Virus record (IMG/VR): IMGVR_UViG_3300042946_000144
Coordinates: 24,332 to 88,331 of that record
Source of the DNA: a virus
Lineage: Duplodnaviria > Heunggongvirae > Uroviricota > Caudoviricetes
Length of the DNA stretch: 64,000 nucleotides
Reading direction: 5' to 3' (one strand)
The notes under the pieces are model-generated. The model did no database searches, was not told where the DNA came from, and saw nothing but the letters and a program-made list of their open reading frames with translations. This document shows, piece after piece, positions 31,733 to 57,072 of the stretch; position 1 is the stretch's first letter; each line of letters opens with the position of its first letter. The position numbers and the translations under genes were made by a program.

Positions 31733-32263
31733 TTAATCAAGTTTGTTTGAAATGGTGTCATTTATTAATCTGAAACTCCTGATAGGAGCTAAATCAGTGA
31801 GTGTCACTTGGTTAATCTCAACTCCCCACTTTCTAACTTCCACTCTAGCTTTCTTTGTTAGAATGTTATCTATCTCTGGATCAATACATTCTTCTACAGT
31901 TTTTGACATGATGATGTTCTTGATAATGCTCTGAGTCATGTCTGATATAGCATCCTGTGCATCATACACTTCTAATAGAAATATCTTAACGTCTGATATC
32001 TTATACTTCACCACTCCTTTTACAACAATGTTCTGTTTATCAATAGTATATAACGATTGTGCTGGTAGGCTAAGTGTTGTTGTAACTGTATATTGTGTAA
32101 TAACTTCATCAAGTATTGGTATCTTAAAATGAATCCCAGGAGATATCACTTTCTTAAACTTACCCACTCTATTAAGAACACCCTCCTCATAGGGATTCAC
32201 AATGACAAAAGGAGCTAGTAAACTAGCCCAATTTGTCAATATGTCTATGAGTTTTTCAAACAT
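31733..32263 (-). CDS. SPFH/band-7 (stomatin-prohibitin-like) domain protein
   Basis: Pattern ...YTIDKQNIVVKGVVKYKISD...YDAQDAISDMTQSIIKNIIMS...RKWGVEINQVTLTDL resembles the SPFH core. ATGA-coupled to portal. Confidence 0.45.
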   Translation of the reverse strand: MFEKLIDILTNWASLLAPFVIVNPYEEGVLNRVGKFKKVISPGIHFKIPILDEVITQYTVTTTLSLPAQSLYTIDKQNIVVKGVVKYKISDVKIFLLEVYDAQDAISDMTQSIIKNIIMSKTVEECIDPEIDNILTKKARVEVRKWGVEINQVTLTDLAPIRSFRLINDTISNKLD

Positions 32264-34860
32264 TATTTACCTTTTTTAGATGCTCTGTTCTTAGCATTTT
32301 CTTTTGCAATTGCTAAGTCATTAGCTTGGTTCTCTCTTGCCACTTGTAGCTTTTCTTTCTCAAGAGCCATCTTATCAGAATTTTGTTTTGACTTACTTTG
32401 TATATCAGCAAGTTTTAACTGATAGTCTTTCATGGCTTTCTGTTGCTCATTTGCTAACTTACTCACTTCAAGAACATCAGGAACTACGTTCTGATTAACA
32501 TCTTCAGCTTCCACTCTACCAAATCCTGTAGCCTGAATGATGGCAATCTCTTTCTTATTGATTCTATCAAGTTCTTTTTGATAGTCATCATGAGCAATCT
32601 TCTGTTCAGCTTGTTGCTGTTGCATTTGCATTTGAGATTGAGCAATTTGTTGTTGTTGTTCCATCTGCTGCTGCTGTTGTTGCATTTGCTGATCTTGTAA
32701 TTGCTCTTGTCTTTCTTTCAGAGTTTTGAACACCTTCTTCATCTGACGTACAGACTTAGTGCTATACAACTCAATGATATCATGTAGAGAACCACCGTTC
32801 TGAATAACAGCTTGAGACAATGCTCTAATCTCTTGGAACATCTGATTATCTTCAGGTCTGTTAGTGAGGAACACTTTGAGATCACGGAATCTGAGGTCTG
32901 CACCATTCACTTGTACAAAAGCTGATTCTCCTTCAGACGTAATGTATGATAGTGTGGATTGTGGTTTCTTGCTTTCTACGTACAGAGCAGCATCGATGAT
33001 TGCTTGATACAACTGACCCATTACATACTCATGAGCTACGAACAGAGGTTCTGTCTGAGCATATGATTGTTGAATAGCTGTGTTTGTACCAGTTGCTGAT
33101 TCACTAGCCTGAACAGAACCAAGTCTTTGTCTTGACATACCTACAAGTTCCCAACACTCATTCTTAAGTTGTTGAGCAAGTGTATATCTAGATTGTATCT
33201 CCTGCGTACGTGTAAGATCGATATCTCTGAACTGGTTAAATGAGCTTGGAGATTTCAGGTTCTCAGGGCTGTCATCAATAAACACCACACCTCTATTACG
33301 TGCTTCCATTTCCCAAATATCCAATGCATCTTGTGCATCACCATCTTTAGGAACTGGTACGTGTCTGATAGATGTTAAATACACCTTACCAACCTCTTTC
33401 TCAAGAAGTTTGTAAAGCTGGTTCATGCAGACATTGTACAACACCTGGAAAGGTTTCATCATGTCTACAAGACTCTTAGCCTCTGTATTCTTCACCTCAA
33501 ATGTTGTTCCAATGATAGGGCAATAGTTAAGGAGCTTGAATGGTTTGATGTGATAGATATCTGGACCAATCTTTATTCCCTGATACCACTGGTTAATCCA
33601 TCCCCACTCCAAAGATTCTTGTGTAGGAATAGTTCCAGATTTGTATGTTTCATCAACAAGCATCGATTGCTCATTGCCCATCTCATCTATGTAGATTAGT
33701 TTACCAATCTTCTTCTTAGACAACCAGTATGCTCTCACTACAACATACTTATATCCAAATGAGCTCACGTTAGATGTAAGTCCCAAGAAGTCTTTAAGAC
33801 CATCATTGTTCTCCTTCATCTCACTCTCAATCATCATTCTTGTCTGAAGAACAAGAGGATCATATGTATCGTATGTAACTGAATCAATACCTGGATTCAC
33901 ATCTGGATTACCAAGGTTTGACTCTCTAACATTAATCAATCCATAATCCTGGAGAGAAGATCTGAGGTGGTCAATCTCATCTTTTGTTAAGTCAGGAACT
34001 GACTCAATAATTTCAGAAAGCTCCATGACCTGTACTGTACCAGCTGCATAAGCCCCCTGAGCTCTTCCTGTGGGATCTGAAATCCACTTTCTATCAGGAG
34101 TTGTAAGGAACCACGTATTCTTAGGATTTGCCACTTCAATGTTAAACCCAAGTTTCGAGTTGTCTTCATATATATGGTAGAATTCTCTCGCAGAAATAAG
34201 CATATCTCTGAAAGCATCTTCACTTTTTTCTTTTAAATTAAACTCAGCTTTCTGACATGTGAGAACGTGGTTTGCCCATTTCTCAGCTACAGATGTATAT
34301 GTGTCAAGCTGATCTTTTACATCTTCTACACTCATCTTCTCAATCTCCTCAGGATCAACTTCTTCTAAATTGACTCCCTGCATAGCAAGCTTTTCGTACA
34401 GCTTTTGCTTTGCTTTATCAATAACATATTCCTGTAGAACGTTTGTTTTAAACTCTAACTCTTCTGATTTAGAATCATCATCAAATGCTTTTACACGGAA
34501 TGTGTCAGGTCTTTTAGATATTTCCCCAACCAACTCATTAACAGGAGTGGTGATGATTGAATAATGTTTTACATATGCAGGAAGCTCAAGGTCTGATGTA
34601 AGCATATCTGTAAAACTCTTAACCTGAGGCTCCTGATAGAAGTCTTCCATTCTAAGGATGCCCTTGATGAGATCATAGTTTTTTACAAATGTATCACGGT
34701 TTTTTACATACTCAGCATAAGCTTTGTTTGCAAAATAGTCCATTGTATTCTTAATCCAGCTCTCATCCTTCTTCTCCTTTTCAGTTTTGAATTGATCTGG
34801 AAATATGTTTAGATACGCATAACGTATTGTAGCATCTTTTGTATACCTAATAATTGCCAT
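32263..34860 (-). CDS. portal protein candidate (865 aa)
   Basis: Immediately downstream of TerL, ATGA-coupled. Size and a Gln-rich coiled-coil C-terminus. Confidence 0.5.
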   Translation of the reverse strand: MAIIRYTKDATIRYAYLNIFPDQFKTEKEKKDESWIKNTMDYFANKAYAEYVKNRDTFVKNYDLIKGILRMEDFYQEPQVKSFTDMLTSDLELPAYVKHYSIITTPVNELVGEISKRPDTFRVKAFDDDSKSEELEFKTNVLQEYVIDKAKQKLYEKLAMQGVNLEEVDPEEIEKMSVEDVKDQLDTYTSVAEKWANHVLTCQKAEFNLKEKSEDAFRDMLISAREFYHIYEDNSKLGFNIEVANPKNTWFLTTPDRKWISDPTGRAQGAYAAGTVQVMELSEIIESVPDLTKDEIDHLRSSLQDYGLINVRESNLGNPDVNPGIDSVTYDTYDPLVLQTRMMIESEMKENNDGLKDFLGLTSNVSSFGYKYVVVRAYWLSKKKIGKLIYIDEMGNEQSMLVDETYKSGTIPTQESLEWGWINQWYQGIKIGPDIYHIKPFKLLNYCPIIGTTFEVKNTEAKSLVDMMKPFQVLYNVCMNQLYKLLEKEVGKVYLTSIRHVPVPKDGDAQDALDIWEMEARNRGVVFIDDSPENLKSPSSFNQFRDIDLTRTQEIQSRYTLAQQLKNECWELVGMSRQRLGSVQASESATGTNTAIQQSYAQTEPLFVAHEYVMGQLYQAIIDAALYVESKKPQSTLSYITSEGESAFVQVNGADLRFRDLKVFLTNRPEDNQMFQEIRALSQAVIQNGGSLHDIIELYSTKSVRQMKKVFKTLKERQEQLQDQQMQQQQQQMEQQQQIAQSQMQMQQQQAEQKIAHDDYQKELDRINKKEIAIIQATGFGRVEAEDVNQNVVPDVLEVSKLANEQQKAMKDYQLKLADIQSKSKQNSDKMALEKEKLQVARENQANDLAIAKENAKNRASKKGK

Positions 34861-36884
34861 TATGTAAATAATTTACGTTTTTTAGTATTGAACATTCCTC
34901 TCGATTCAGAGAACAATGTGTTCTTTTGTTTATTTGCATATAGTGCCTTCACCCTGTCATCACCAGATCCCCCAACCTTTCCAAGTATAGGATCCATCTT
35001 CATAGCCTGTGCTATTGCTAGTTCTGCTGCTACAATACGGTCAAAGTTACCTTGATCGTTGTATTGTATAATCTCTTCCAACAGAACAGGATCAAATATC
35101 TTACTCACACCTGTAGATTCTCTAATCACATTCCCAGCATCATCTGTTTCCTTGTATATAGTCTCTTCCATATACTTCTTCAGACAGTTGTGAAGATAGT
35201 CAATCACCTTCTGTGCAGAACGATGTATTCCATACTCACGTTTAACGGTAGTATTTGGAACCACTTCCATCAACCACTGAGGCTGTTTCTCCAGATAGTG
35301 AGCATCACCTTTTGCCTTCATATATTCAATGAACGAGATGTCATCATTCTCACAAAGCGTACGTGCATTGTAATATTTGATGAGTAGTCTAGCTTGTTCT
35401 TCCCAGGTTTCCTTCTTATCAGGTCTTGCACAATACGAAGCTACGAACATATCTTGATATTTCTCGCCTGTTAGGTCATGCATTCTTTTATAAATATACA
35501 CAGATCCTAAAGAGGAGCTATATGCTGACTTACCTTGTCTATATGGATCCACCCCAGCTACATACAGTCCATATGGGGGATGTTCCACGGGAAACTCGTA
35601 TATTACAATAGGAGCATCCTTCAAATCTGTATTCTTAAGTGGGAAGTTGCTAATTGGTTGTTTATCTGTAAACTCATGAGTAATCTTCTCACCATCATTA
35701 AACAGGACAACAGGAGTTCCTGTACGTTCCTGTTGAAGCAATCTTGTTTTCTGTCTCTTTGCAGCCTCAATATCAAAGATGTTTGTATCCTCGTTTAGGA
35801 ATATGTCATCCACCTCTAATGGGTAGTACATTTTTTCCTTTAGATAGGCAAGTCTATCACCAGCTTTCTTTAATCTTTCTAGATTATCCTGTGTAACCTT
35901 TAATGCTTTCTCTTCGTTAGATACAAGCATTTTTACGTTATGTAGGTCACTTCCTGCAGGCTGATTTAGATAGGCTCCAAGTGTAGAATCTTCTTTAGCT
36001 TCCATTCTATACTTGTATGAGATGAATAACCCATGGATTCTCTTCTCATCTTTCTCGTTATTATAAGTGAGAAAGTTAAAGTTGTCCACGTCAAACATCA
36101 AGGACTTTGCATCCATGAATTTCTTCATATCACCACCTGTACCTGTAAGAATAGGGCTACAACCCCATCCAAATGGTGTTGTAAAACCAGGAACAGCTGC
36201 CTGAAAGCCTCTAAGAAAACTTCCTTTACCAATCTCATCTATGATTAGTTTACGAGGTTTTGTACCTGCAATAGCTTCTTCGTTATTACCTTCATCAAGG
36301 TTCCTAATAAGAATCTGAGAGAAGGGGATTCTCTCTCCTGATTTGGTTTTGATACCTAATGTCACTTGGTTTTTCCAATTGTCCTCAATCCTATTCCATC
36401 TCCAAGCTTCTGGTAGGAAGTTCAATCCCTTATCAATCTTATCTGTAATCAGCTTTATATCTGGAGCATTCAGTCCTGCAATAATGTTCTGACTGTTCTC
36501 ATCAAACGTTGCACCCCATGCTATATAAGATGCTTCCAAAACAGACTTTGCAAAACGTCGTATACCAAGAATAACCAAACCTTTCTTATCTCGTTGAGCT
36601 CTATCAATCTCGTTTGTCACCACCCACTCATTATCCCTGAGAAGAGGGTTGGCATATTTCTGGGAAATACGTCCTCTCTCATCAATAACATCCACCTCTG
36701 TGTGCCAGATGTTCATGTGCCAATAGAGAAAGGGGTTTATGTAAACCCCATCCATCATAGCTCCATTTAAACAAAGCTCCTTATGAAAATTAAAGAACGG
36801 TTTATATTCCTCAGAGTCCCTATCGGGGAGACGTTTCTGATTTATAAACCAATCTTTATAATCTATATTCTGTAGTTCATTCAT
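34860..36884 (-). CDS. terL: terminase large subunit
   Basis: N-terminal ATPase: GIRRFAKS (deviant Walker A), LIIDEIGKG (Walker B). C-terminal nuclease-like region YVAGVDPYRQGKSAY. 674 aa. Confidence 0.65.
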   Translation of the reverse strand: MNELQNIDYKDWFINQKRLPDRDSEEYKPFFNFHKELCLNGAMMDGVYINPFLYWHMNIWHTEVDVIDERGRISQKYANPLLRDNEWVVTNEIDRAQRDKKGLVILGIRRFAKSVLEASYIAWGATFDENSQNIIAGLNAPDIKLITDKIDKGLNFLPEAWRWNRIEDNWKNQVTLGIKTKSGERIPFSQILIRNLDEGNNEEAIAGTKPRKLIIDEIGKGSFLRGFQAAVPGFTTPFGWGCSPILTGTGGDMKKFMDAKSLMFDVDNFNFLTYNNEKDEKRIHGLFISYKYRMEAKEDSTLGAYLNQPAGSDLHNVKMLVSNEEKALKVTQDNLERLKKAGDRLAYLKEKMYYPLEVDDIFLNEDTNIFDIEAAKRQKTRLLQQERTGTPVVLFNDGEKITHEFTDKQPISNFPLKNTDLKDAPIVIYEFPVEHPPYGLYVAGVDPYRQGKSAYSSSLGSVYIYKRMHDLTGEKYQDMFVASYCARPDKKETWEEQARLLIKYYNARTLCENDDISFIEYMKAKGDAHYLEKQPQWLMEVVPNTTVKREYGIHRSAQKVIDYLHNCLKKYMEETIYKETDDAGNVIRESTGVSKIFDPVLLEEIIQYNDQGNFDRIVAAELAIAQAMKMDPILGKVGGSGDDRVKALYANKQKNTLFSESRGMFNTKKRKLFT

Positions 36885-37977: not shown

Positions 37978-38294
37978 GATTTTTTGTTTAGTTGTTGTTT
38001 CACTCTTTCTTCCTCATCACCTGTCATTATTTCCTCCCATTTTTTCAAGGGACAACTACAAGAAAGGCATCTGGTTTTAGCTGAGAGCGTACATCCACAT
38101 TCTACACAATGATGATCTGGTCTTATACTCTTATATCCCCTGTTCTTCTTTGCGTTCTCAGAATGATGCTCACAACCCAAACAAATCTTTGTTCTCTCGT
38201 TGCTCGTCAATTCTATTACACCCTTCATTTGAGCTGGGGGAATCAGCTTGTTCTTCCACCCCTCGTAAATCTGTGACAAAAGATTGTTGCCCAT
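37974..38294 (-). CDS. Cys-rich zinc-finger protein (106 aa)
   Basis: CLGCEHH...HHCVECGC...CLSCSC; overlaps the HU-like gene 3' end out of frame. Confidence 0.4.
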   Translation of the reverse strand: MGNNLLSQIYEGWKNKLIPPAQMKGVIELTSNERTKICLGCEHHSENAKKNRGYKSIRPDHHCVECGCTLSAKTRCLSCSCPLKKWEEIMTGDEEERVKQQLNKKS

Positions 38295-38631
38295 ATAACT
38301 TTGGTTTTAAATTCTCTATTGCAGCTGTTATGTTATTCACCTTACTTATTGTAGAAAGCCTTTTGGTTTCTGAAAGAGGGGTGTCTAGAAGCTCTAGCAA
38401 AACCTTCCTTTTATTCTCAAGAGAAGCCATCTTCTTAACAGCCTTCTTTGTATTGAAAATAAACTTCCCAAACCCAGAGATCTCCACCGTATTATTAGAA
38501 AGCAAAGCTGAATTAGCCTCACTAAACTGATGTGCTATGACAGCATCCACTATCTTCTCAGAAATAAGAAGCTTTGGAGCAATCTTCCTCACCAACCACT
38601 CCCTCATCGAAAGACTCTGTGGCTTATCCAT
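38170..38631 (-). CDS. HU/IHF-family DNA-binding protein
   Basis: IAHQFSEANSALLSNNTVEISGFGKFIF matches the HU beta-arm signature (GFGxF). Confidence 0.5.
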   Translation of the reverse strand: MDKPQSLSMREWLVRKIAPKLLISEKIVDAVIAHQFSEANSALLSNNTVEISGFGKFIFNTKKAVKKMASLENKRKVLLELLDTPLSETKRLSTISKVNNITAAIENLKPKLYGQQSFVTDLRGVEEQADSPSSNEGCNRIDEQRENKDLFGL

Positions 38632-39028
38632 GTGTCAAACTTATTTGCAATACAACATCCCTATCAAAAGGAAGAATTATAACAGGATTGACCTTCACCT
38701 TCGTCCCATCTTTCACTAACACTCCCACCTTCTTCAGCTTAGAAATGATGTTATTAATCGTTGGGCTTGTGCTGTCATACCTCTCACAAAACTCCTTCCT
38801 ATTATTAGCATAGGAAATATTCCCCCTAATAGCTGTAAATGCCACAAGCTGTATTTCTCTTGTTGTCAGCTTAAGACCGTTCACAGCAGAAAGAATAGAA
38901 TAATACCTTTCAGCTGAGGCGAAGTTATCGTCCACCTGCTTTTTAAGCTTCTGCACAACTATGTTATTAGCCTTGTCCATATTTAGTTTATACAAAGATA
39001 GGAATATTAGAATAGATGTCAAATACAT
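38624..39028 (-). CDS. hypothetical protein, possible DNA-binding regulator
   Basis: ORF; likely start at the internal MDKANN. Confidence 0.35.
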   Translation of the reverse strand: MYLTSILIFLSLYKLNMDKANNIVVQKLKKQVDDNFASAERYYSILSAVNGLKLTTREIQLVAFTAIRGNISYANNRKEFCERYDSTSPTINNIISKLKKVGVLVKDGTKVKVNPVIILPFDRDVVLQISLTHG

Positions 39029-39048
39029 TTATTACATGAAATGCTATA

Positions 39049-39366
39049 TTATGCATCAATTTCTTTATAAAACTTCAAAACAATGTTGAAGAAGAAAAAC
39101 CCAATCTCCAACTTCTCAAAATAAGAAAGAGGATATAACAACTCTTTATCATCACTCTCATCAAATCCTGGATAGTAGGAAACACCTAGTGTAAATTCTG
39201 TAACACTAGTGAACCTATTTATCTCCAATCCTAGTTCAATCTCATAACTAGTGAATATACCAATGAGAATAGTTGATATAATAATCAACAAATAAAACCA
39301 TCCAACAATAGAAACAATCAATTCCATAACTTTTCGTTTTAACTGTGTTTGTATATAAAGGAGCAT
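39049..39366 (-). CDS. small membrane protein (105 aa)
   Basis: Hydrophobic segment LIVSIVGWFYLLIIISTILIGIF. First gene of the minus-strand module. Confidence 0.4.
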   Translation of the reverse strand: MLLYIQTQLKRKVMELIVSIVGWFYLLIIISTILIGIFTSYEIELGLEINRFTSVTEFTLGVSYYPGFDESDDKELLYPLSYFEKLEIGFFFFNIVLKFYKEIDA

Positions 39367-39606
39367 TTATGTCCTACCCCACCCAGCACACCCCAAAGTT
39401 ACTGGTGTTTCCAAATACAAACCAAATATTTTTTTCCATAGAAGGAAAAATTATTTTAAAACCCCCACCCAGCCTAGGAAAAATTTTTATATCCCCCCCT
39501 ACCTATTATATGCATAGGAGAAGGGACTACTCCCAGTTCCAACCCCTCCCATAATTTGGGGGATCGTGGGTATCCCCCGTATTGTTAATCACTAAATCTT
39601 AAAACT
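39367..39606. promoter_or_regulatory. divergent control region between the structural (minus) and early (plus) modules
   Basis: Direct repeat CCCCACCCAGC at 39377..39387 and 39463..39473. Poly-C runs. Palindrome TATGCATA at 39509..39516. Hairpins GGGA-CTAC-TCCC and GGGGGAT-CGTGGGT-ATCCCCC at 39557..39577. Confidence 0.5.
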
Positions 39607-39990
39607 ATGGCACTACAATTCGCCAAGTACGAAAGGGCAGAGAGCACCCTTGAATCTCTCGGAACAGTATTAGAGAATGTTGGAAAGGACGGTTTCCTTG
39701 AACTCATTCCACGCAATGTTAAGGATGTGACCAAGCGTGTTGTTGTCATCCTTAAGAAGAAGAATGGTACCAGCACAATGGTTACTTGTTCTCAGCAAGT
39801 GTCTGATGGTATCAGAAACAAAACCATTGAGTTGGGGCACGTTCTGAACTTTGAGATTCTTGAAGGAGAAGCAGGTGTTCCATTCATCAGCATGCCTGGT
39901 GGTCTCATCAGCGTTGCTGTTAAGAGCATCACTGTTAAGGACTATGCTGTTGACACCACTTCCATCAGTTTGGAAGATCTCATCGGATGA
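39607..39990 (+). CDS. hypothetical early protein (127 aa)
   Basis: First plus-strand ORF, followed by a perfect terminator. Confidence 0.5.
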   Translation: MALQFAKYERAESTLESLGTVLENVGKDGFLELIPRNVKDVTKRVVVILKKKNGTSTMVTCSQQVSDGIRNKTIELGHVLNFEILEGEAGVPFISMPGGLISVAVKSITVKDYAVDTTSISLEDLIG

Positions 39991-39993
39991 TAA

Positions 39994-40018
39994 AAGGGGC
40001 TTTGCCCCTTTTTTATAT
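39994..40018 (+). terminator. rho-independent terminator
   Basis: GGGGC-TTT-GCCCC followed by TTTTTT. Confidence 0.8.
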
Positions 40019-40411
40019 ATAGGGTGGGCTGTAATGCATTTAGGGTGGGGAAGTAAAACAGTATTTCCTTCATAACTAATTGATTATCAGCTCATTCTAT
40101 ATATTTTATTGAGGGTGAATGAGGTGATGTAGAACCCATTCTGGAATATAAACAACATTTCTCCATCTTGTCAAATCAAAAGGCATTTGGCATAAATATA
40201 GCATTATGATTACACTTTGTGTTCTACCTAACTTTGTTGGTACTAAGAGAGAGTTTATACTATGTGCTCTTTCTTGTTTATTATTAGATAGTATTTATCT
40301 TGTTCCTATGATATGTGGGCTGTAACAAGCCCATTTCTGTCCATAGACTATTGTCTATGCTGATGATGACCTAATTGAGGGTCGAAACAGAAACACACAA
40401 AACTAAATAAA

Positions 40412-40666
40412 ATGGAACAGTCTTTAAAGGTTATAGGAAAGATTACACTTCCTGATGCTCCTGAAAAGCATAAATGTGTATGTGATGATTGTAAAGATGT
40501 TTTGGATGATTCATACGGTGATCCAAGAACTAAAATTACCACTGAATATTTAGATGGTTCTAAAAGTGAGAGGTTTATATGTCCTAATTGTGAGTTTATG
40601 AAATATGTGGATCATGAACCAATTAGTATATTTGATGGTACACCAGATTGGATGAGAATGTTATAA
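40412..40666 (+). CDS. zinc-ribbon-like small protein (84 aa)
   Basis: CVCDDCKD ... CPNC. Confidence 0.45.
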   Translation: MEQSLKVIGKITLPDAPEKHKCVCDDCKDVLDDSYGDPRTKITTEYLDGSKSERFICPNCEFMKYVDHEPISIFDGTPDWMRML

Positions 40667-40692
40667 GAGCCTGTAACAGGGCTCTTTCTTTT
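40666..40692 (+). terminator. rho-independent terminator
   Basis: AGAGCC-TGTAACA-GGGCTCT followed by TTCTTTT, overlapping the stop codon. Confidence 0.7.
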
Positions 40693-40765
40693 GGGTCTAT
40701 AGTTAAATGGATATAACCACAGCCTTCTAAGCTGTTGTTCCTAGTTCGATTCTAGGTGGACCTAC
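40693..40765 (+). tRNA. tRNA-Arg (anticodon UCU)
   Basis: Acceptor GGGTCTA/TGGACCT (two GU pairs). D-stem GTTA/TAAC. Anticodon stem ACAGC/GCTGT with loop CTTCTAA. T-arm CCTAG-TTCGATT-CTAGG. 73 nt, no encoded CCA. Confidence 0.85.
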
Positions 40766-40805
40766 TAATCATTTATTAATTACACACAATTAAATCAAAT
40801 TCAAC

Positions 40806-40931
40806 ATGAAAAAGATCATCGTTTTAGCAATTTTGGCAATCGTTGCCTTCAGTTCTTGCACCACTTCTAAGTATGGCTGCTATGAAACAAAAGACCGTGG
40901 AATTATTTACAGACCATTACACAGATATTAA
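40806..40931 (+). CDS. small lipoprotein (41 aa)
   Basis: MKKIIVLAILAIVAFSSCTTSKYGCYETKDRGIIYRPLHRY: signal peptide plus lipobox-like AFSSC. Below the ORF-track cutoff. Confidence 0.4.
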   Translation: MKKIIVLAILAIVAFSSCTTSKYGCYETKDRGIIYRPLHRY

Positions 40932-40957
40932 TTCACACATTTAAAACTACATTTAAC

Positions 40958-41113
40958 ATGGAAAAGATTATTGCTCCTGTTGAACAGGAAAACAACGAGC
41001 TTTCTCACGCAGAACAGCTTAATGCTATTAGCGAAACAATGTCAAATGAACAAGATGATTGGTTCTTAGACCAAATCATTCAAGGACAACCCAACTTTTG
41101 GTGGGTTTATTAA
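40958..41113 (+). CDS. small acidic protein (51 aa)
   Basis: Manual ORF MEKIIAPVEQENNELSHAEQLNAISETMSNEQDDWFLDQIIQGQPNFWWVY. Confidence 0.3.
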   Translation: MEKIIAPVEQENNELSHAEQLNAISETMSNEQDDWFLDQIIQGQPNFWWVY

Positions 41114-41134
41114 GAAGGTCAAACACCTAAGCAT

Positions 41135-41377
41135 GTGTTAAAACTGCTTTTTTTATTTACAATTAAAACTCTTATATTTATGTCACAAACAAAATGGAAA
41201 ATATGGTTCGTTGTATCGTTTATGTGGATTATGCTTCACATATTCTTGTTTACAATTTCTACAGATGAGCAAAGAATTACATTAATACATAATTCTCTGT
41301 TTATGGCAGGAGCTTGGCTTTCTGCTATAAACATATCGTTTGTCTTGTATGTAGGAAACCTAAAAGACGATAAATAA
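41135..41377 (+). CDS. small integral membrane protein (80 aa, 2-3 TM)
   Basis: Hydrophobic segments. Confidence 0.45.
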   Translation: MLKLLFLFTIKTLIFMSQTKWKIWFVVSFMWIMLHIFLFTISTDEQRITLIHNSLFMAGAWLSAINISFVLYVGNLKDDK

Positions 41378-41454
41378 TAACAACATTGTGTGTGGGTAAC
41401 CCAAAGCCTATATGGTGGAGGGTTTCCAACACATGTCTAAAACCCCATTAAATC

Positions 41455-42003
41455 ATGCTACACACAGTAAGACTAATTCCAAGATCATACATTCCAGATG
41501 ATATAAAACCAGGAATGTTGTTCTTTACAGACAGAATCATACAAGTGGACAAAGTTCCTTTAGATGAGAAGAAGTTCTTCGAGGAATATGGCTATCCTGT
41601 TGAATTCTATCTTTTAGACCAAGATCCAAACCTCAGATGGTCTAATGTATTAGCCACACCACAACAGATTGGTTGGTTTGATTATGATCCTGAGGGAGAA
41701 GATTTTGCTGATATTACAGTGGATCATCTCAATATGATCATCTCTGACTATGACGGATTTTGTCAAATTGATGTATATACAGACAATTTGGATGATGATG
41801 AGGCACATGAAGAATATGTCAAGGTGATGCCTGAACTGTTGGAAGGTAAAGTGATCATTCATACAATAGAATATGAAGAGGATGAAGATGATTGGGAAGA
41901 TGATGAAGATCTTCAGTGGGAATATATGAATGGTGAATATGAAGAGGAGGATGACTATTACGAACCAACAGATGAAGATGATGACACATGGAAAGAAAAC
42001 TAA
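41455..42003 (+). CDS. highly acidic early protein (182 aa); DNA-mimic/anti-restriction candidate
   Basis: About 30% D+E; C-terminus EYEEDEDDWEDDEDLQWEYMNGEYEEEDDYYEPTDEDDDTWKEN. Confidence 0.5.
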   Translation: MLHTVRLIPRSYIPDDIKPGMLFFTDRIIQVDKVPLDEKKFFEEYGYPVEFYLLDQDPNLRWSNVLATPQQIGWFDYDPEGEDFADITVDHLNMIISDYDGFCQIDVYTDNLDDDEAHEEYVKVMPELLEGKVIIHTIEYEEDEDDWEDDEDLQWEYMNGEYEEEDDYYEPTDEDDDTWKEN

Positions 42004-42258
42004 AAACTAAATAATCATGAAATACATTAAAGAATTCCTATTTGGAAGGAGAAGAGAGGCTGTTGAGCCTTTCTATCCAGGAGTGAAGACACTCGATATG
42101 TCAAATAGACCATCGTTTCAACAATGGTGTAAAGAGTTCAGAGTGAGTATGTTATACGACAGAAAGCTCATAGAAATGAACTAAAACTCGTTTTTGTGTG
42201 TAGATTTAGCCCTCAGCAGCAATGTTGGGGGCTTTTTCATTCATTAAACTCTATACAT

Positions 42259-42600
42259 ATGCCTACAATACATATTCCTGATAAGATATGTCCTCATTGT
42301 GGTGGTACTAAATGGTATATTTTTACACAGGATAGTAGAACAAAAAAAGTTTGTTATGTTCTAAAACGTGAAGGATGGATAAAGTTTCATAAATCTAATC
42401 CTGACAAACATCGCACTTATAGAAAATCAGGTTATAAGCAAAAAAGTAAGAAACTGACAAATACTTATTTAAAAGAGTTGATTATCTCTAATTCAGATTT
42501 ATCATTTTCTGATGTACCGCAAGAACTTATAGAACTTAAACGTAAACAATTAACATTAAAACGTCAAATATGGCAAGAAGCAAAAAACAATCAGTGGTAG
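42259..42600 (+). CDS. zinc-finger protein (about 113 aa), basic
   Basis: Probable start MPTIHIPDKICPHCGGTKWY. Confidence 0.4.
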   Translation: MPTIHIPDKICPHCGGTKWYIFTQDSRTKKVCYVLKREGWIKFHKSNPDKHRTYRKSGYKQKSKKLTNTYLKELIISNSDLSFSDVPQELIELKRKQLTLKRQIWQEAKNNQW

Positions 42601-42827
42601 CTTTAAAAGCTACGGTGATTAAGCAATCTGTAGGTGTGACAGATGTAACGAATGAGTGTAAATCAATTGGTGATACACTTAGTTCAACATTCCACAATAC
42701 AGGAGATTTTAAGGCTGCTCAGGGTGCAATTTCTGCATATGGAACAGCTGTTAGTGCTATGAAGGCTCTACTTATATACAAAAAGCTCACTGGCACACCA
42801 ATGGAAATAGAATTCTTTAAAAATTAA
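42570..42827 (+). CDS. hypothetical protein (85 aa)
   Basis: ORF. Confidence 0.35.
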   Translation: MARSKKQSVVALKATVIKQSVGVTDVTNECKSIGDTLSSTFHNTGDFKAAQGAISAYGTAVSAMKALLIYKKLTGTPMEIEFFKN

Positions 42828-42855
42828 TCAATCACACCCCATTAAATCAATCAAA

Positions 42856-43134
42856 ATGCGTACAAAAAGCTCAAACAACTACACACAGAGAGAAATTAAC
42901 GAATTAAAAGATGCAATTCGTTCAGGCAAACCTTATACACAGATAGCACAGGAGTTTTCCGTTGCTTACAATCGTTCCTATGCAGGAGTGTATATGAAGG
43001 TTTGTAGCATTTCAAAGAAAACACGTAAAAGAGTGAATACACTCAAAACACAAACAGTTGATTCAAAATCATTGAGCTTTCAAGCTAAAAGAATTGAAAT
43101 CAACCCTAATGGTACAGTTACATTACATTTTTAA
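42856..43134 (+). CDS. hypothetical protein, possible HTH (92 aa)
   Basis: ORF with conserved upstream ATTAAATCAATC motif. Confidence 0.4.
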   Translation: MRTKSSNNYTQREINELKDAIRSGKPYTQIAQEFSVAYNRSYAGVYMKVCSISKKTRKRVNTLKTQTVDSKSLSFQAKRIEINPNGTVTLHF

Positions 43135-43152
43135 CCACTAAAACCATACACA

Positions 43153-43362
43153 ATGGCTACATTAATTTGGTCCTCAATGGATCACGACAGAAGCAACATT
43201 CTTACGCTGGATAACACTAATTCAGCTACAAGATTCTTTCACAAGGCATTTGCTGATTCTCAGTCTAAACGATTGACAATCAATAACAACAGGTATTTCT
43301 ATGCTCCTTCAGATGAGTATAGAAGCTTTGCCATTCGTTTCAAAGGAATCAAGAAGAAATGA
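43153..43362 (+). CDS. hypothetical protein (69 aa)
   Basis: ORF. Confidence 0.3.
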   Translation: MATLIWSSMDHDRSNILTLDNTNSATRFFHKAFADSQSKRLTINNNRYFYAPSDEYRSFAIRFKGIKKK

Positions 43363-43565
43363 GAACATTTTACATCAAGAAACACGGGGAATATATCAAC
43401 TATATATTCCCCTTTAATGAGCCCTTAAAGCTCAGAAATACAAAGCTCAAGATAACTCAAAACAGAGTGGCAAACTTACAGCCTCACATTATATATACAG
43501 AGAAAGAGGCTAGAGTTGTATTACAACTAGAAAAAGATGCTAAACTTATTCCTGTTATAGGGTGA
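43359..43565 (+). CDS. hypothetical protein (68 aa)
   Basis: ORF. Confidence 0.3.
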   Translation: MRTFYIKKHGEYINYIFPFNEPLKLRNTKLKITQNRVANLQPHIIYTEKEARVVLQLEKDAKLIPVIG

Positions 43566-43601
43566 GAGTTATTATCTTTGTAATCATTAAATCAATTTAA
43601 C

Positions 43602-43988
43602 ATGAAAAAGCTAATTTTCCTACTCCTATGTGGGATTGCTATTTCTACATCCGTTTTCTCACAAACGTTTAGGAAAGTAGCTACAATGAACGCTATGTCA
43701 TACAATCGAATCAAAAAAGATTGGGTTGTTGACAAGTCTTACAGTCCTTCAAACCTTGCTGTTCTCATCAAGGGTTCAGAAATCATCATTGCAAATGAAT
43801 ACGAACAGCGTATTTATACGTATGGAGATTGTGAAAAAGACACGTATGATACACACGTTGTGTATTCTTGGCCAGCTCTTGATAAAGATGGTAAAAAGTG
43901 TAAGTTCATGATTAAGAACTTCTTCTCTGGAACAACGGTTTACACATTTTTGTATGATGAATTGGCTATAGAATACATAATGGAATAA
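43602..43988 (+). CDS. secreted protein with N-terminal signal peptide (128 aa)
   Basis: MKKLIFLLLCGIAISTSVFSQTF. Confidence 0.5.
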   Translation: MKKLIFLLLCGIAISTSVFSQTFRKVATMNAMSYNRIKKDWVVDKSYSPSNLAVLIKGSEIIIANEYEQRIYTYGDCEKDTYDTHVVYSWPALDKDGKKCKFMIKNFFSGTTVYTFLYDELAIEYIME

Positions 43989-44203
43989 TCAAAATAACTA
44001 GCCCTAAGTACACGGGATCGAAACCTCAAGCTACTCTTCCTACATTTGAAAAACAGTGTATAGAAGCTTCTAAATCGTTAGTTAGCAGTGTTGGCAACTT
44101 ACACTGGGGAGTTAAAGTTGTGGTTAGCTTAGTAACATCTTAGGTGTGTGATATTGTGAAAATATGGGTTCAATTCCCATCTAGGCTACTAAAACTAAAA
44201 TAT

Positions 44204-44413
44204 ATGACATCAATAGAATGGTTATACACAACAATGTGGGCAACAAATGGAAATATTTCTAATGAACAATTTGAACAAGCCAAAGAAATGCACAAGCAAG
44301 AGATAATAAATGCTTGGTCTGATGGTGCTGGTGGTGGACAATTTACAACTACACCCGATACACCAGAACAATACTATCAAGAAACATTTAAACAACCTAA
44401 AAAAATACAGTAA
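44204..44413 (+). CDS. hypothetical protein (about 70 aa)
   Basis: ORF 44144..44413 with likely internal start MTSIEW. Confidence 0.35.
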   Translation: MTSIEWLYTTMWATNGNISNEQFEQAKEMHKQEIINAWSDGAGGGQFTTTPDTPEQYYQETFKQPKKIQ

Positions 44414-44465
44414 AGCTAAACATTAACTATTTTAAACTAAAAGTAAACTTATAACTTTACACACT

Positions 44466-44654
44466 ATGGCAACAATGATTGATCCACCATCAGGATGGAA
44501 GTATGGATTTCCTAAACCTATTCCTGAAGATAGAAGACAAGATAGCCTAGTATGGCTTGTAGAACAGGGTTATCCTCAATCTGAAATAGACGCATTAGGA
44601 GAATATTTCTACTGCAGATTCTGGGAAAGACCAGATGATGAGGGGGAGGAATAG
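44466..44654 (+). CDS. small protein with acidic C-terminus (62 aa)
   Basis: ORF. Confidence 0.35.
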   Translation: MATMIDPPSGWKYGFPKPIPEDRRQDSLVWLVEQGYPQSEIDALGEYFYCRFWERPDDEGEE

Positions 44655-44657
44655 AAG

Positions 44658-44790
44658 TATATGCAATTGCATATATGAATGACAAATCATTCACTATTGT
44701 ATGTTTTTGCATATAATGAATGATATGTCATACACATTATTCCAACGAAAAATTGTATCTTAACCACATTATTCAAACGAAAACTTAACT
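44658..44790. repeat. palindrome and direct-repeat cluster in a 250-bp non-coding gap
   Basis: Perfect 18-bp palindrome TATATGCAATTGCATATA at 44658..44675. TGAATGA-CAAA-TCATTCA at 44676..44693. Direct repeats ACACATTATTCCAACGAAAAATT at 44734..44756 and CCACATTATTCAAACGAAAACTT at 44764..44786. Confidence 0.6.
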
Positions 44791-44904
44791 TATGATTGTA
44801 TTTTTTATGGCATTAGCTGCTTTTGTAGCCATATATGGGACAGTTAACATGTTCAGGCAGCTATTTTGTAAAACAAAAAGGTAAAAATCTGTAAAATAGA
44901 CATT

Positions 44905-45216
44905 ATGATTCCATGTATCTGCATCAATGACAAAAACCGTCCTAAGGAGATTCCTGTTAACAAATGGATTAAAGAAGGACAGGAATATCATGTTATATAC
45001 ACTGTTTGGAGCATTCCTTCTAATACATTAGGGCTGCATTTAGATGAAATATGGTTGGATGATTGCTGTTTTCCATATGAATTCTTCAAAGCAGATAGGT
45101 TTGCTTTTACAGAGGAGAATCTTAAGCTCCTTATAGAGCTAATTAAAGACTGTAACGATACAGATTTCTCAATGGATGAGATATTAAAACAAACAACGCT
45201 TGAAGAAGCCTCTTAA
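44905..45216 (+). CDS. hypothetical Cys-containing protein (103 aa)
   Basis: ORF. Confidence 0.4.
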   Translation: MIPCICINDKNRPKEIPVNKWIKEGQEYHVIYTVWSIPSNTLGLHLDEIWLDDCCFPYEFFKADRFAFTEENLKLLIELIKDCNDTDFSMDEILKQTTLEEAS

Positions 45217-45601
45217 AACAAACAAAATGAACTATTACGTATTTCCAGGATTAAAGCGTACAATTGATCCAAGTAGTGGTCCATTGTGCAAGCGAGGGAA
45301 GATTTCCACAGAAGAGGTTATAAAGATTGTTGCTAAAAGCTGTAATGTCACGGTTGATGATATAAGATCAAACATGAGACGTGAAAATATAGTGGAAGCA
45401 AGACATATAACCTGTGGTGTCCTTAGAAACGAGTTTGATTATTCCCTCAAGTTTATAGGAGATGTTATGGGTGGTAAACACCACACCACTATAATACATT
45501 CAATTAGAACCTTCAGAGATAGATATAAGGTTTATAATGATTACAAACAGCTTGTAGATGGTGTAACAAACGAAATAAAGGTGTATATTGCATGCAATTA
45601 A
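45200..45601 (+). CDS. DnaA domain-IV-like HTH DNA-binding protein
   Basis: RRENIVEARHITCGVLRNEFDYSLKFIGDVMGGKHHTTIIHSIRTFRDR resembles the DnaA C-terminal HTH (..AR..AMYL...T..SL..IG..FGGRDHTTV.HA..KI). Confidence 0.55.
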   Translation: MKKPLKTNKMNYYVFPGLKRTIDPSSGPLCKRGKISTEEVIKIVAKSCNVTVDDIRSNMRRENIVEARHITCGVLRNEFDYSLKFIGDVMGGKHHTTIIHSIRTFRDRYKVYNDYKQLVDGVTNEIKVYIACN

Positions 45602-45613
45602 AACTTATAAAAC

Positions 45614-46951
45614 ATGAAAAAAGCAATTGTGATTATTGGGATGCTATTGTCCCAATTAAGCTATGGTAGAAAGATTTATGTATCCTCTTCTACAGGAAAT
45701 GATACAAGAACTATTACACAAGCTCAAAGCTCATCTACACCATGGGCTAGTCTTAGTAAGGTGCAGAGCTCTATGTCCTCCATAGTTAGTGGAGACAGTG
45801 TGTTGTTTAAAAGTGGAGATAGATTCAATGGGACATTGGTTGTATCTTCTAAGACAAATGTCTATTTTGGCTCTTATGGAACAGGTGCAAAACCTTTGTT
45901 CTGGGGAACAGGAGCTACAATATCATCATTAGTCATCCTTAGAACATCTAAGAACATTGTAATTGATAACTGGGATATATCTGATACAACCATCTCATTT
46001 ACAGACAGATATGTAATGGCTAAGATTAAGATAGCCTTTATGATGGATCAAAGTTCTACAGGAAACACTGTTAAAAACTGTAGAATGGATAGAATTGGAT
46101 ATGGGTTCTATCTTACATCATCCTCAAGAGGTAACAATATTACAGGCTGTGATATTGGTAATCTTAGAATGATTAAGAACACACCAAAAGAAATAAACCC
46201 TGATGATGACTATGGTGGTGTACCAGTACAAATCTCTAGTTCTGGAAATACATTCACAAACAACTATCTACATGACTGTTGGGCTATGTCCTATGATTAT
46301 GGTAGAGATGGTGGCGGTATAGAATTCTTTGAAGAAGGAGCTGTTATAGAGAATAATTTTATTGCTTATAACACGTTCTATGATAACAATGGTACACTTG
46401 AGCACGGTTCTAACGCTGATGGTATAGCTAACAATGACATCCGTAACAACACATTTGCTTTTAACAAGGTGATTAACTGTGGTAGTAGTGTTTATATTAA
46501 TAACGGTGGACAGTATAAGACAAGAGTGAGAAACCTGATGATCTATAATAATGTGTTTGTAGAAACAAGAGCTAAAACATCTACAGCTGTATTTGGTCAA
46601 AAAGCAGCTGACACTATTCCTAATGTTATCACAATAAAAAATAACATCTTCAAACTTACCAACGGTCTTCAAGTGGCTAGAACAAGCTTAACCACTCCTG
46701 CTAATCAGTTTGTACATACAAACAATCTCTATCAACTATCTGGTGGTAGTATAACTAACTTTCCATTAGACAGATCAGAAATCAATTCTACATCAACTAT
46801 CTGGATGAACACAGCTAATAGTAATCCTCTTCTTTGGGATTATCATTTAGCACCAGGAAGTCCAGCTGCTAGTACAGGAACTGATGTGGGCTTATCTAAA
46901 AACTTTGAAAACAATCCTGTTGTATTCCCATACAACATGGGCATTTATTAA
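45614..46951 (+). CDS. secreted right-handed beta-helix (pectate-lyase-fold) protein
   Basis: Signal peptide MKKAIVIIGMLLSQLSYG. Repeated N/G/T-rich beta-helix rungs (NNDIRNNTFAFN, NNGGQYKT, IKNNIF). Confidence 0.55.
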   Translation: MKKAIVIIGMLLSQLSYGRKIYVSSSTGNDTRTITQAQSSSTPWASLSKVQSSMSSIVSGDSVLFKSGDRFNGTLVVSSKTNVYFGSYGTGAKPLFWGTGATISSLVILRTSKNIVIDNWDISDTTISFTDRYVMAKIKIAFMMDQSSTGNTVKNCRMDRIGYGFYLTSSSRGNNITGCDIGNLRMIKNTPKEINPDDDYGGVPVQISSSGNTFTNNYLHDCWAMSYDYGRDGGGIEFFEEGAVIENNFIAYNTFYDNNGTLEHGSNADGIANNDIRNNTFAFNKVINCGSSVYINNGGQYKTRVRNLMIYNNVFVETRAKTSTAVFGQKAADTIPNVITIKNNIFKLTNGLQVARTSLTTPANQFVHTNNLYQLSGGSITNFPLDRSEINSTSTIWMNTANSNPLLWDYHLAPGSPAASTGTDVGLSKNFENNPVVFPYNMGIY

Positions 46952-46976: not shown

Positions 46977-47186
46977 ATGATTGGCGTTCTCAAAAAAAGA
47001 GGTGAAGAATGGTTTGTAGCAACTGTTCTTTACAATTCAGCTTGGTCAAACTACTATCCTACACACCCTGACCACAATTTATGGTTGAAGATTTGGGGAA
47101 AGGATGGCCAAAAGGTTTTATTTGAGATTGTAAACAAAACACACGTTAAACTAAAAGAATTATGCAATGAAGGTTGTGATGTATGA
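46977..47186 (+). CDS. hypothetical protein (about 69 aa)
   Basis: ORF 46884..47186; likely internal start MIGVLKK after the upstream stop. Confidence 0.3.
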   Translation: MIGVLKKRGEEWFVATVLYNSAWSNYYPTHPDHNLWLKIWGKDGQKVLFEIVNKTHVKLKELCNEGCDV

Positions 47187-49122
47187 CATAGAGACCCTTA
47201 AGGAATATTTCTTAGTGGTCGCATTAGTTCCTCAGGAACCATATAGAGTTTTTAAGGTTAATAAAGACCAGAACAGCTTAGATGCTTTCATCAATTTTAC
47301 AAAGGAATATCAAGATTACTATTGGGTGGGGTATAACAACCTAAGGTTTGACTCTCAGGTGATTGAGTGGATTATTAGGAACAATGAGAATTGGCATGAG
47401 CTTTCAAGCTTAGATATTACATCTAGAATACATCAGAAAGCACAAGATGTGATACATGATGCTAATTATGATGTATTTCCTGAATACAGAGAATCAGATC
47501 TTTCCTTGAAACAGCTCGATCTATTTAAAATACACCACTATGACAATAAGAACAGACGAGTGAGTTTAAAAAGACTTGAGTTTGAAATGGATCTTGAGAA
47601 CATTGAAGAGATGCCCATAGATCATAACAAAACAGGTATGACTGATGAAGAAATAATCCTCACTACAGAATACTGTTTGAACGATGTTTGGGCTACTTAT
47701 CAGTTCTATCTTGTAACAATTGGTGAAACAGAACATCCTTTATATAAAGGAAACAACCAGATTGAGCTCAGAATGGATATACAGGAAGAATTTGGTATTC
47801 CCTGTTTAAACTATTCAGATAGTAAGATTGGTGATGAGATGATTAAGAAGTATTATTGTATAGAAAAGGGAATAGACTACAAAGAACTTCCCAAGAAAGG
47901 ATTCTTCAGGAAGGATATTAAGATTAAACACTGTATAGCACACTATGTTGAATTCGAAACACCTGAACTAAAGAAGTTCCTTTCTGATATAAGTAAGAAA
48001 ACACTCACAATGAGTGATGATTTTAAAGAAGATTTACATTTTTATGACAACATTTATGCATTCGCAAAGGGTGGGCTACATACAGAAAATGGTCCAAAGG
48101 TGTTTGAGGCTGATGATGAACACTTCATTATTGATTGGGACGTTAGCTCATACTATCCTGCTATCATCATTAATAACGGTAAGTATCCCTATCATTTGGG
48201 TAAGGAATTCCTTGCTGGATATAAGAAGATGTTTGAGAAAAGGCTAGAACTGAAACCCTTAGCTAAGAAAGACAAGAAGATCAAAGGTATTGTTGGTGCT
48301 CTAAAGCTTGCTGTAAACTCTGTTTATGGTAAATCTTCTGACATGCAATCCTGGATTTATGACAGACAACTTACAATGTTCACCACTATAACAGGAGAAC
48401 TTTCTCTGTTAATGCTCATTGAGAAATATGAACTTGCTGGTATAAAAGTTATTTCTGCTAATACAGATGGTGTCACTATTCGCATTCATAAAGACAAACT
48501 CGAAAAGATGTTTGAGATTAATAAATGGTGGTGCAAAGCGACACAATATGAGCTAGAACGTGCTGATTATCAGAAGATTATATTCTCAACGGTGAACGAT
48601 TATTTAGCAATTAAAACTGATGGAGATGTTAAAAAGAAAGGTGATTTCCTCACAGACTTTGAATTACATAAAAACAAGTCTGCGTGTATTGTTCCTATTG
48701 CCCTTGAGCATTATTTTGTTAGCGGTGTTCCTATTGTGGACACTATTAGAACTCACTCTAATATTTTTGATTTCTGTCTTAGACAAAAGTCTTCCAGGGA
48801 CTTTCACTATGAAGGAATCAATAGAAGAACTGGAGAAACCACAGTATACCACAAACTTATCAGATACTACATATCTCAACAAGGAGAAAAACTCCTGAAA
48901 GTGAAGAATGAAGATTCTGACAGTGGTGCAGCTAATGTTTCTCAAGTGGAAGCAGGTGAATGGCTAGCAACAGTGTGTAATCATCTTACCAAGGATCATC
49001 CAATGGACAACATCAACTATGAATATTACATAGAGAGAGCAAATAAGATAGTCCACAAGATTGAAACAGAAGGTAAGAAGAGAAAAGTTATTGTTAACCC
49101 AAATCAAATGTCACTATTCTAA
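47167..49122 (+). CDS. polB: family B DNA polymerase with 3'-5' exonuclease (compact, 651 aa)
   Basis: Exo I YDIET, Exo II YNNLRFD, Exo III YCLNDVWATY. Motif A DWDVSSYYPAII, motif B KLAVNSVYGK, motif C ISANTDGV. Confidence 0.8.
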   Translation: MKVVMYDIETLKEYFLVVALVPQEPYRVFKVNKDQNSLDAFINFTKEYQDYYWVGYNNLRFDSQVIEWIIRNNENWHELSSLDITSRIHQKAQDVIHDANYDVFPEYRESDLSLKQLDLFKIHHYDNKNRRVSLKRLEFEMDLENIEEMPIDHNKTGMTDEEIILTTEYCLNDVWATYQFYLVTIGETEHPLYKGNNQIELRMDIQEEFGIPCLNYSDSKIGDEMIKKYYCIEKGIDYKELPKKGFFRKDIKIKHCIAHYVEFETPELKKFLSDISKKTLTMSDDFKEDLHFYDNIYAFAKGGLHTENGPKVFEADDEHFIIDWDVSSYYPAIIINNGKYPYHLGKEFLAGYKKMFEKRLELKPLAKKDKKIKGIVGALKLAVNSVYGKSSDMQSWIYDRQLTMFTTITGELSLLMLIEKYELAGIKVISANTDGVTIRIHKDKLEKMFEINKWWCKATQYELERADYQKIIFSTVNDYLAIKTDGDVKKKGDFLTDFELHKNKSACIVPIALEHYFVSGVPIVDTIRTHSNIFDFCLRQKSSRDFHYEGINRRTGETTVYHKLIRYYISQQGEKLLKVKNEDSDSGAANVSQVEAGEWLATVCNHLTKDHPMDNINYEYYIERANKIVHKIETEGKKRKVIVNPNQMSLF

Positions 49123-56922: not shown

Positions 56923-57072
56923 CAATTAACCAGCTTATAGACAAAATAAAAGACAACGCTGAGTGGTTACAGACCACAGAAGGAGATGAAATAGAGTGTA
57001 TATCTATGGAGAATCTCCAAGAAATTTTACAAAAGTATTTTAAACTAGAATTAAACTTAAAAACAGATGACT
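56920..57072 (+). CDS. small protein (50 aa)
   Basis: Manual ORF MTINQLIDKIKDNAEWLQTTEGDEIECISMENLQEILQKYFKLELNLKTDD. Confidence 0.3.

Follow-up and report, generated by a model that had tools for sequence, protein, structure and literature searches.

A highly acidic two-part protein and its 55-aa partner in uncultured crAss-like-related phages: a candidate nucleic-acid decoy

A 64,000-nt stretch of phage DNA, hereafter called the window, was found to encode a 182-aa protein in which a strongly acidic N-terminal domain, predicted to be folded, is followed by a disordered polyacidic tail. The next gene downstream encodes a 55-aa product, to which the acidic protein is fused in some of its relatives. 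We tentatively suggest that the protein is an electrostatic decoy for a nucleic-acid-binding protein, with a design closest to that of Gp44 of phage SPO1. The preliminary description of this locus had regarded the gene as a candidate for an anti-restriction DNA mimic of the Ocr/ArdA type. The acidity behind that idea was borne out, with an Ocr-like excess of 56 D/E over 11 K/R residues, whereas neither homology to Ocr or ArdA nor their folds were detected. The features of the locus are as follows.

41455..42003, plus strand: gene of the 182-aa acidic protein, ATG start, TAA stop at 42001-42003 (ORF list, composition, 50 homologues)
41455..41865, plus strand: conserved globular N-terminal domain, aa 1-137 (AF2, alignments, profile search)
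41866..42000, plus strand: disordered polyacidic/aromatic tail, aa 138-182 (pLDDT, composition)
41911..41940, plus strand: tail motif LQWEYMNGEY, aa 153-162 (shared by divergent members; AF2)
41968..42000, plus strand: C-terminal motif TDEDDDTWKEN, aa 172-182 (conserved in relatives)
42017..42184, plus strand: partner gene, 55-aa protein, pI 9.6 (adjacency, fusions, 16 homologues)
42208..42233, plus strand: terminator-like GC-rich hairpin with a T-run (consensus scan; 11-bp stem, 6 GC pairs)

The composition of the product agreed with the earlier description of a very acidic protein with about 30% Asp+Glu. It contains 31 Asp and 25 Glu, i.e., 30.8% of its residues, and the net charge is -45, with a computed pI of about 4.05 and a mass of 21.9 kDa. 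Among the 72 non-overlapping coding-strand ORFs of the window, whose D+E content averages 13.3% (sd 5.4%), this ORF ranked first in acidity (D+E, z = +3.3; net charge per residue, z = -3.4). The same 182-aa product was predicted by independent gene callers on other contigs, and a search of a large protein database returned 50 homologues at E <= 0.01 (48 at E < 1e-6), in which the N-terminus is conserved. Thus, as judged from these comparisons, the ORF is a real gene. All 50 homologues originated from metagenome assemblies and carried either no name or the annotation "hypothetical protein."

In the family alignment, conservation is confined to an N-terminal region of approximately 135 aa, beyond which lies the non-alignable acidic tail. 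The AF2 model obtained with this alignment predicted that aa 1-137 form a beta-rich domain of nine strands and two helices, with pLDDT values of mostly 80-93. The invariant motifs of the domain are SYxP, GMxF, GYPVE(P/F)Y, (A)TPxQIGWFD, NxI...DG, and P...KVxI. Its net charge is -20 in the window protein and about -19 on average over about 135 aa in 175 family members (range from -3 to -31). Nineteen alignment columns contain at least 60% D/E and are grouped at aa 76-86 and 106-120, compared with about six basic-leaning columns. Since the acidic character is kept at fixed positions, the alignment indicates selection for an acidic surface and not drift.

Searches with the 182-aa protein gave no matches in Pfam (E <= 10), PHROGs, or PADLOC, and a search of PDB sequences with the family profile returned only noise at E > 1. 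Comparison of the predicted model with the PDB and with BFVD using Foldseek yielded nothing at E <= 0.001; therefore, the modeled domain appears to have no recognisable relative of known structure. An OB-like core is no more than hinted at.

The tail comprises 45 residues, of which 58% are D/E and eight (18%) are Y or W; it has a single Lys and a net charge of -25. A tail of 60 residues consisting almost entirely of D/E/Y/W had initially been described. Its acidic nature was confirmed, while its length was slightly overstated, because the last 60 residues of the protein take in aa 123-137 (KVMPELLEGKVIIHT), which are predicted to form two beta strands. The pLDDT values were below 50 at aa 141-177 and 180-182, which corresponds to predicted disorder, and the sole helical turn predicted in the tail (aa 153-158) lies inside the motif LQWEYMNGEY. 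In the structure prediction, which the preliminary description had proposed as a check, the tail is thus predicted to be disordered and the N-terminal domain to be folded, with no significant match among the structures searched.

Short motifs of the tail are shared between relatives. LQWEYMNGEY recurs in P0013, P0015, P0017, P0019, P0024, and L023, with N-terminal domains only about 38-45% identical. The C-terminal motif is conserved as TD(E/L)DDDTWKE(N) in P0001-P0010 and appears as DDDTWKED in the distant member P0049 (35% identity). Other clades have tail motifs of their own, namely WDHYPHY(T/N)Y, DDQIYNNFNHEGGIKY, and xYDGAGFTxED. In the sampled loci, none of the tail motifs recurred in other proteins, and LQWEYMNGEY was unique to the acidic-protein family there; the possibility that these motifs serve as a shared docking motif thus found no support.

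Across 175 family members, the tail, which evolves fast, varies from 2 to 99 aa (median 29), and at any length it contains about 50% D/E, 1-5% K/R, and about 13% aromatic residues. Since 17 of the 175 members have tails of 5 aa or less, the tail appears not to be essential to the core function of the family. Relatives with 70-96% identical domains still differ in tail length through indels. The tail is encoded by GAT/GAA-rich repeats (repeat families D5 and D10), and such indels among close relatives would fit slippage in these repeats.

Many members carry a double CxxCxGxG (DnaJ/Anti-TRAP-like) or a CxxC...CxxC zinc-ribbon insert in the middle of the tail (L005, L009, L015, L017, L029, P0016, P0018, P0020, P0031, P0032, P0044, P0052, P0053, and others). 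The double CxxCxGxG insert gave sub-threshold matches to the DnaJ and Anti-TRAP models. When 41 family members were scanned against PHROGs, the sole match was phrog_3931, found in six members, and we presume that it corresponds to the zinc-ribbon insert. Other members (P0046, P0047, P0049, P0057, P0092, and P0164) possess an additional domain, small and approximately 50 aa long (VWENGEI...HPD).

An exhaustive profile search with the N-terminal domain alone recovered 259 cluster representatives at 50% identity, 218 of them at E <= 1e-10; the family thus contains at least 259 such clusters. The best 150 of the 259 matches were all to the N-terminal domain, located at or near the N-terminus in nearly all cases, and some of them were partial. 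Sequence identity across the family goes down to about 30%. In IMG/VR viral contigs, the family is represented by 49 loci on contigs of up to 117 kb, with one copy per locus. No bacterial or archaeal relatives were found among 185,579 species (one genome each). Likewise, nothing significant was obtained from 50,697 GenBank phage records, either by megablast of the region or by tblastn of the protein, the family consensus, and two divergent members. By these searches, the family was found only in metagenomic phage contigs.

As read from the coordinates, the gene is located within about 11 kb of a contig end in nine of the 15 contigs longer than 70 kb, for example, at 3 kb in L021 and at under 0.1 kb in L051, and its orientation relative to the end is inconsistent. 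Assemblies seem to break near the acidic-gene region, and either a genome terminus or a hypervariable stretch could account for this.

The window belongs to a large virulent phage that is a distant relative of the crAss-like and Cellulophaga phages. Its terminase shares 39.6% identity with the terminase of Leptolyngbya phage Lbo-JY46, 32% with those of Cellulophaga phages phi17:2 and phi4:1, and 26-30% with those of crAss-like phages. The landmarks of the window are listed below.

28750-30303, minus strand: major head protein
32263-34860, minus strand: portal
34860-36884, minus strand: large terminase
about 39.4-39.6 kb: divergent point, where minus-strand structural/packaging genes give way to plus-strand replication genes
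47167-49122, plus strand: DNA polymerase

The minus strand up to about 39.4 kb is occupied by structural and packaging genes, including those of giant virion proteins. Two giant proteins are encoded there, one of 1518 aa (2781-7337, minus strand) and one of 1855 aa (8219-13786, minus strand). The latter matched "virion structural protein" PHROGs (phrog_37948, E 3e-112), and no match was found for the former. Drawing on the parallel with crAss-like phages, we consider that one of the giant proteins might be an RNA polymerase packaged in the virion.

On the plus strand, small ORFs occupy about 6 kb from 39607 onward and are followed by replication genes. In addition to the DNA polymerase, the replication module includes helicases, a Sak4-like ATPase, a primase, a UDG-like protein, and rIIA/rIIB-like proteins. 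The UDG-superfamily protein is encoded at 58136-58855 (plus strand; Pfam E 1.9e-6), and the module also contains a DUF932 protein at 57067-57849 (plus strand; E 2.8e-9). The rIIA-like gene (59266-61605; phrog_612, E 1.7e-59) and the rIIB-like gene (61681-63213), both on the plus strand, close the module.

The acidic gene is situated 1.85 kb into the block of small ORFs, which starts at the divergent point. In related contigs, its homologues also lie among small ORFs, and the opposite strand has portal, terminase, and small genes and an HU-like gene. Nineteen of 41 non-identical loci have the DNA polymerase gene about 2 kb downstream of the acidic gene. Since a small-ORF block at a divergent point is a typical position of early genes, early expression of the acidic gene is plausible.

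Several other elements were observed around the block. A gene for tRNA-Arg (anticodon TCT) is located at 40693-40765 on the plus strand, between ORF 40412-40666 and the lipoprotein-like ORF 40806-40931. In 22 of 41 non-identical loci (e.g., L001 7853-7999 and L002 7678-7815), the acidic gene is preceded, at a distance of approximately 1.2 kb, by a recurrent ORF of 45-48 aa (M..ITL.PTEF..F......V.A....L..LGY). Two plus-strand ORFs have signal-peptide-like starts, 40806-40931 with MKKIIVLAILAIVAFSSC (lipobox-like SSC) and 43602-43988 with MKKLIFLLLCGIAISTSVFSQ; these sequences suggest secreted or lipoprotein products and a Bacteroidota-type host. An HU/IHF-like protein encoded at 38170-38631 on the minus strand (Pfam Bac_DNA_binding, E 9.6e-7) adjoins the divergent point, and its family is also present at the equivalent position in L001 and L002.

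A consensus scan of positions 39000-46000 revealed 13 terminator-like hairpins, compared with 3.2 +/- 1.5 in shuffled sequences. Two of them directly follow ORFs, namely hairpin 39992-40012 after ORF 39607-39990 and hairpin 40665-40686 after ORF 40412-40666. This excess suggests that the region is divided into many short transcription units. Another hairpin, upstream of the acidic gene at 41383-41436, was no more stable than shuffled sequence (z -1.4) and was rejected. The sequence CAC(A/C)C(A/C)ATTAAATCA abuts three start codons on the plus strand, at 40783-40797, 41441-41455 (the acidic gene), and 42835-42849. It was not accepted as a special signal, as 14 of 100 shuffles also reached three matches. 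Other ORFs of the early block have similar A-rich "cAC..TAAA" leaders without a Shine-Dalgarno sequence, and the element looks like a general A-rich leader of the genes in this block.

The acidic patches of the domain, the polyanionic tail free of basic residues, and the occurrence of the family as a phage-only, single-copy, probably early gene are the grounds on which we tentatively interpret the protein as a decoy. The conserved position of the gene between the divergent point and the replication genes lends further support to this interpretation. Such a decoy would act early in infection as a nucleic-acid mimic in the broad sense. Its acidic domain would dock specifically on a basic nucleic-acid-binding surface of the target protein, and the flexible polyanionic tail would add avidity by filling the rest of the DNA/RNA path, as proposed for Gp44 on RNA polymerase. 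Candidate targets would be a host defence protein or a host DNA/RNA-handling protein, and possibly a phage DNA-binding protein. It is conceivable, as pure speculation, that the HU/IHF-like protein described above is such a phage-encoded target. The decoy would probably work together with the 55-aa product of the next gene.

Precedents exist for both parts of this architecture: the disordered polyacidic segment of Gp44 is considered a flexible mimic (PMC8208478), and Ocr (PMC3439906) and ArdA (PMC2731889) are highly acidic folded mimics. Gp44 is a host-takeover protein of a Bacillus phage that interacts with RNA polymerase subunits. Its N-terminal domain is available as PDB entry 6L6V, and its aa 56-122 are disordered, contain 57% D/E, and have been proposed to be a flexible ssDNA-like mimic (PMC8208478). 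The acidic protein and Gp44 are alike in that both are phage proteins of about 20-27 kDa with a folded N-terminal part and a disordered segment of approximately 57-58% Asp/Glu that has essentially no basic residues. However, the folded part of Gp44 is a 55-aa DNA-binding domain, whereas that of the acidic protein comprises 137 aa, and its net charge of -20 makes DNA binding unlikely. The acidic protein also differs in the C-terminal location of its acidic segment, in the aromatic motifs of that segment, and in the presence of a partner gene. No similarity to Gp44 was detected in the PDB sequence search, the library of which is presumed to include 6L6V.

Several observations weigh against a decoy. 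The protein has no homology or structural link to any proven DNA mimic, and acidity alone is unspecific, since chaperones, SSB tails, and scaffolds are likewise acidic. The near-tailless members of the family also speak against it, as does the conserved partner gene, for which we know of no counterpart in the Ocr, ArdA, or Gp44 systems. In addition, the location of the polymerase gene about 2 kb downstream in part of the loci would also fit a role in replication.

The partner gene starts 13 nt past the stop codon of the acidic gene. Its product has the motif PSFQ(Q/E)WCKEFRVSMLYDRK and the C-terminal motif PSFQQWCKEFRVSMLYDRK. Sixteen homologues were found, whereas Pfam and the PDB contained no match, and the AF2 model of the product alone was poor (pLDDT 54). 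Of the 53 loci with a family match, 25 have a partner homologue adjacent to the acidic gene, mostly directly downstream, and by BLAST clustering the partner adjoins it in 18 of 41 non-identical loci. In-frame fusions that join the partner to the end of the acidic tail were found in P0025, P0030, and P0076, the one in P0076 being independent of the other two and different from them. Inspection of the DNA confirmed the fusion in three contigs, each from a different sample. The junctions consist of ordinary sense codons (CAA, Gln) in all three, so that an artefact of stop-codon recoding was rejected. Adjacency together with fusion provides good evidence, at the level of gene organization, that the acidic protein and the 55-aa product act together. 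The terminator-like hairpin at 42208..42233 begins 24 nt beyond the partner stop codon and, as a pattern match, possibly marks the end of a two-gene transcription unit.

The acidic protein could alternatively be dedicated to the 55-aa protein, or to some other basic protein of the phage, as its partner, chaperone, or regulator. In this case, the 55-aa product would be the real effector, and the acidic protein would serve to neutralise, stabilise, or deliver it. The frequent adjacency and the fusions, including the different one in P0076, are in line with this explanation, as is the single transcription unit suggested by the hairpin after the pair. Moreover, the partner in the window is basic (pI 9.6), and its poor model as a lone chain would fit folding on binding. 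However, a recognisable partner is missing in about half of the loci, and the homologue in L002 has a pI of 5.6, so that the partner is not always basic. The conserved acidic patches and the tail motifs would also be left unexplained. We therefore consider a purely dedicated chaperone or regulator rather unlikely, although such a role is compatible with the decoy function and does not exclude it.

A further explanation relates the protein to replication, as an SSB-like accessory of the replisome or of recombination that either binds ssDNA as a divergent member of that group or uses its tail to recruit or sequester replication and repair proteins. SSB-type proteins, such as E. coli SSB and T7 gp2.5, combine an OB fold with an acidic C-terminal tail (PMC3936761, PMC10359462), and this explanation is favoured by the OB-like hints, the acidic tail, and the closeness to the polymerase gene. 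At the same time, the domain is strongly acidic (about -19), and the predominance of acidic over basic-leaning columns makes ssDNA binding unlikely. No SSB family was matched in Pfam or PHROGs, and no SSB signature was recognised. The acidic disordered tail of SSB-type proteins has a hydrophobic or aromatic tip. The tail of the window protein is acidic and predicted to be disordered, and it ends in ...DDDTWKEN. In the family, the tail ends are variable and often not aromatic; the last residue is Y, I, F, W, L, M, or V in 51 of the 128 long-tailed members (40%). An SSB-like function appears unlikely.

As a special case of the decoy interpretation, the protein could be an anti-restriction DNA mimic of the Ocr/ArdA type, which would block type I R-M enzymes, and possibly BREX, at their DNA groove. 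Ocr and ArdA both act as dimers. The Ocr dimer is rigid and all-helical and imitates a bent B-DNA of about 24 bp; Ocr is not known to have a partner gene. In Ocr, 34 acidic residues are set against six basic ones in 116 aa (PMC3439906), and the acidic protein shows a similarly large excess over its 182 aa and a probable early expression. In contrast to the all-alpha Ocr, it is predicted to be beta-rich, with a tail that is disordered and does not present a rigid B-DNA-like surface. No Pfam-A family was matched at E <= 10, hhalign of the family profile against an Ocr sequence gave a probability of 0.2%, and the structural searches with the predicted model revealed no match to the Ocr fold.

ArdA, which occurs on plasmids and transposons as well as on chromosomes (PMC10746416), forms an elongated dimer; its three small alpha-beta domains display carboxylates in a helical pattern that mimics 42 bp of DNA (PMC2731889). 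The acidic protein resembles it in being acidic, in its size of about 165-180 aa, and in the clustering of conserved acidic residues in defined segments. It differs in its single compact predicted domain with a disordered tail and in its occurrence in phage contigs alone. Homology to ArdA, including the anti-restriction and VF motifs, was indicated neither by a Pfam match (E <= 10) nor by a significant PDB sequence match, and ArdA was absent among the structural matches listed for the predicted model.

The charge density, the probably early position, and the restriction to phage contigs are thus consistent with anti-restriction. Against it stand the dissimilarity in sequence and fold, the partner gene without a parallel in the Ocr and ArdA systems, and the fact that nothing singles out type I R-M (or BREX) among many possible targets; we regard this specific function as quite improbable. 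The protein shares with the class of DNA mimics a small size, a low pI, and a high D+E content. As judged from the sequence searches and the predicted structure, it belongs to neither the Ocr nor the ArdA family, with which only the charge is shared. If the acidic protein is a decoy, Ocr and ArdA would be its functional analogues only.

Finally, although the GAT/GAA-rich repeats of the tail could expand by slippage, a chance low-complexity ORF or an annotation artefact with no specific function is effectively refuted by the conservation of the N-terminal domain in 259 clusters down to about 30% identity with invariant motifs, together with the confident AF2 model, the conserved synteny, and the conserved tail motifs.

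At a broader level, it is possible, if doubtful, that the acidic protein works with its 55-aa partner as a two-component module for host takeover or anti-defence, which has so far gone unrecognised and is specific to a large clade of uncultured phages related to the crAss-like group. The acidic globular domain, for which no structural relative was detected, would then act with the modular disordered tail to sequester a conserved host nucleic-acid-binding protein. The tail of such a module would bear short motifs that can be swapped, zinc-ribbon inserts of the DnaJ type, or additional small domains. We know of no characterised early or anti-defence function in relatives of crAss-like phages, and a search of the literature on acidic early proteins of crAss-like phages found nothing specific. 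If the two-component module is confirmed, it would represent a new structural class of nucleic-acid mimic, in which a rigid and a flexible mimic are united in one chain.

Even if the decoy interpretation is wrong, the protein still defines a well-delimited orphan family that comprises at least 259 clusters, was found only in phages, and has a partner that is either fused or adjacent; this makes it a reasonable target for structural and pull-down studies. If the interpretation is correct, the decoy would be a structurally new version of a known strategy and would resolve no long-standing question; it would extend the short list of nucleic-acid mimics among phage proteins by a new structural class. 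The way in which a folded acidic domain is joined here to an exchangeable disordered polyanion and paired with a partner peptide would then be instructive as to how such decoys gain specificity.
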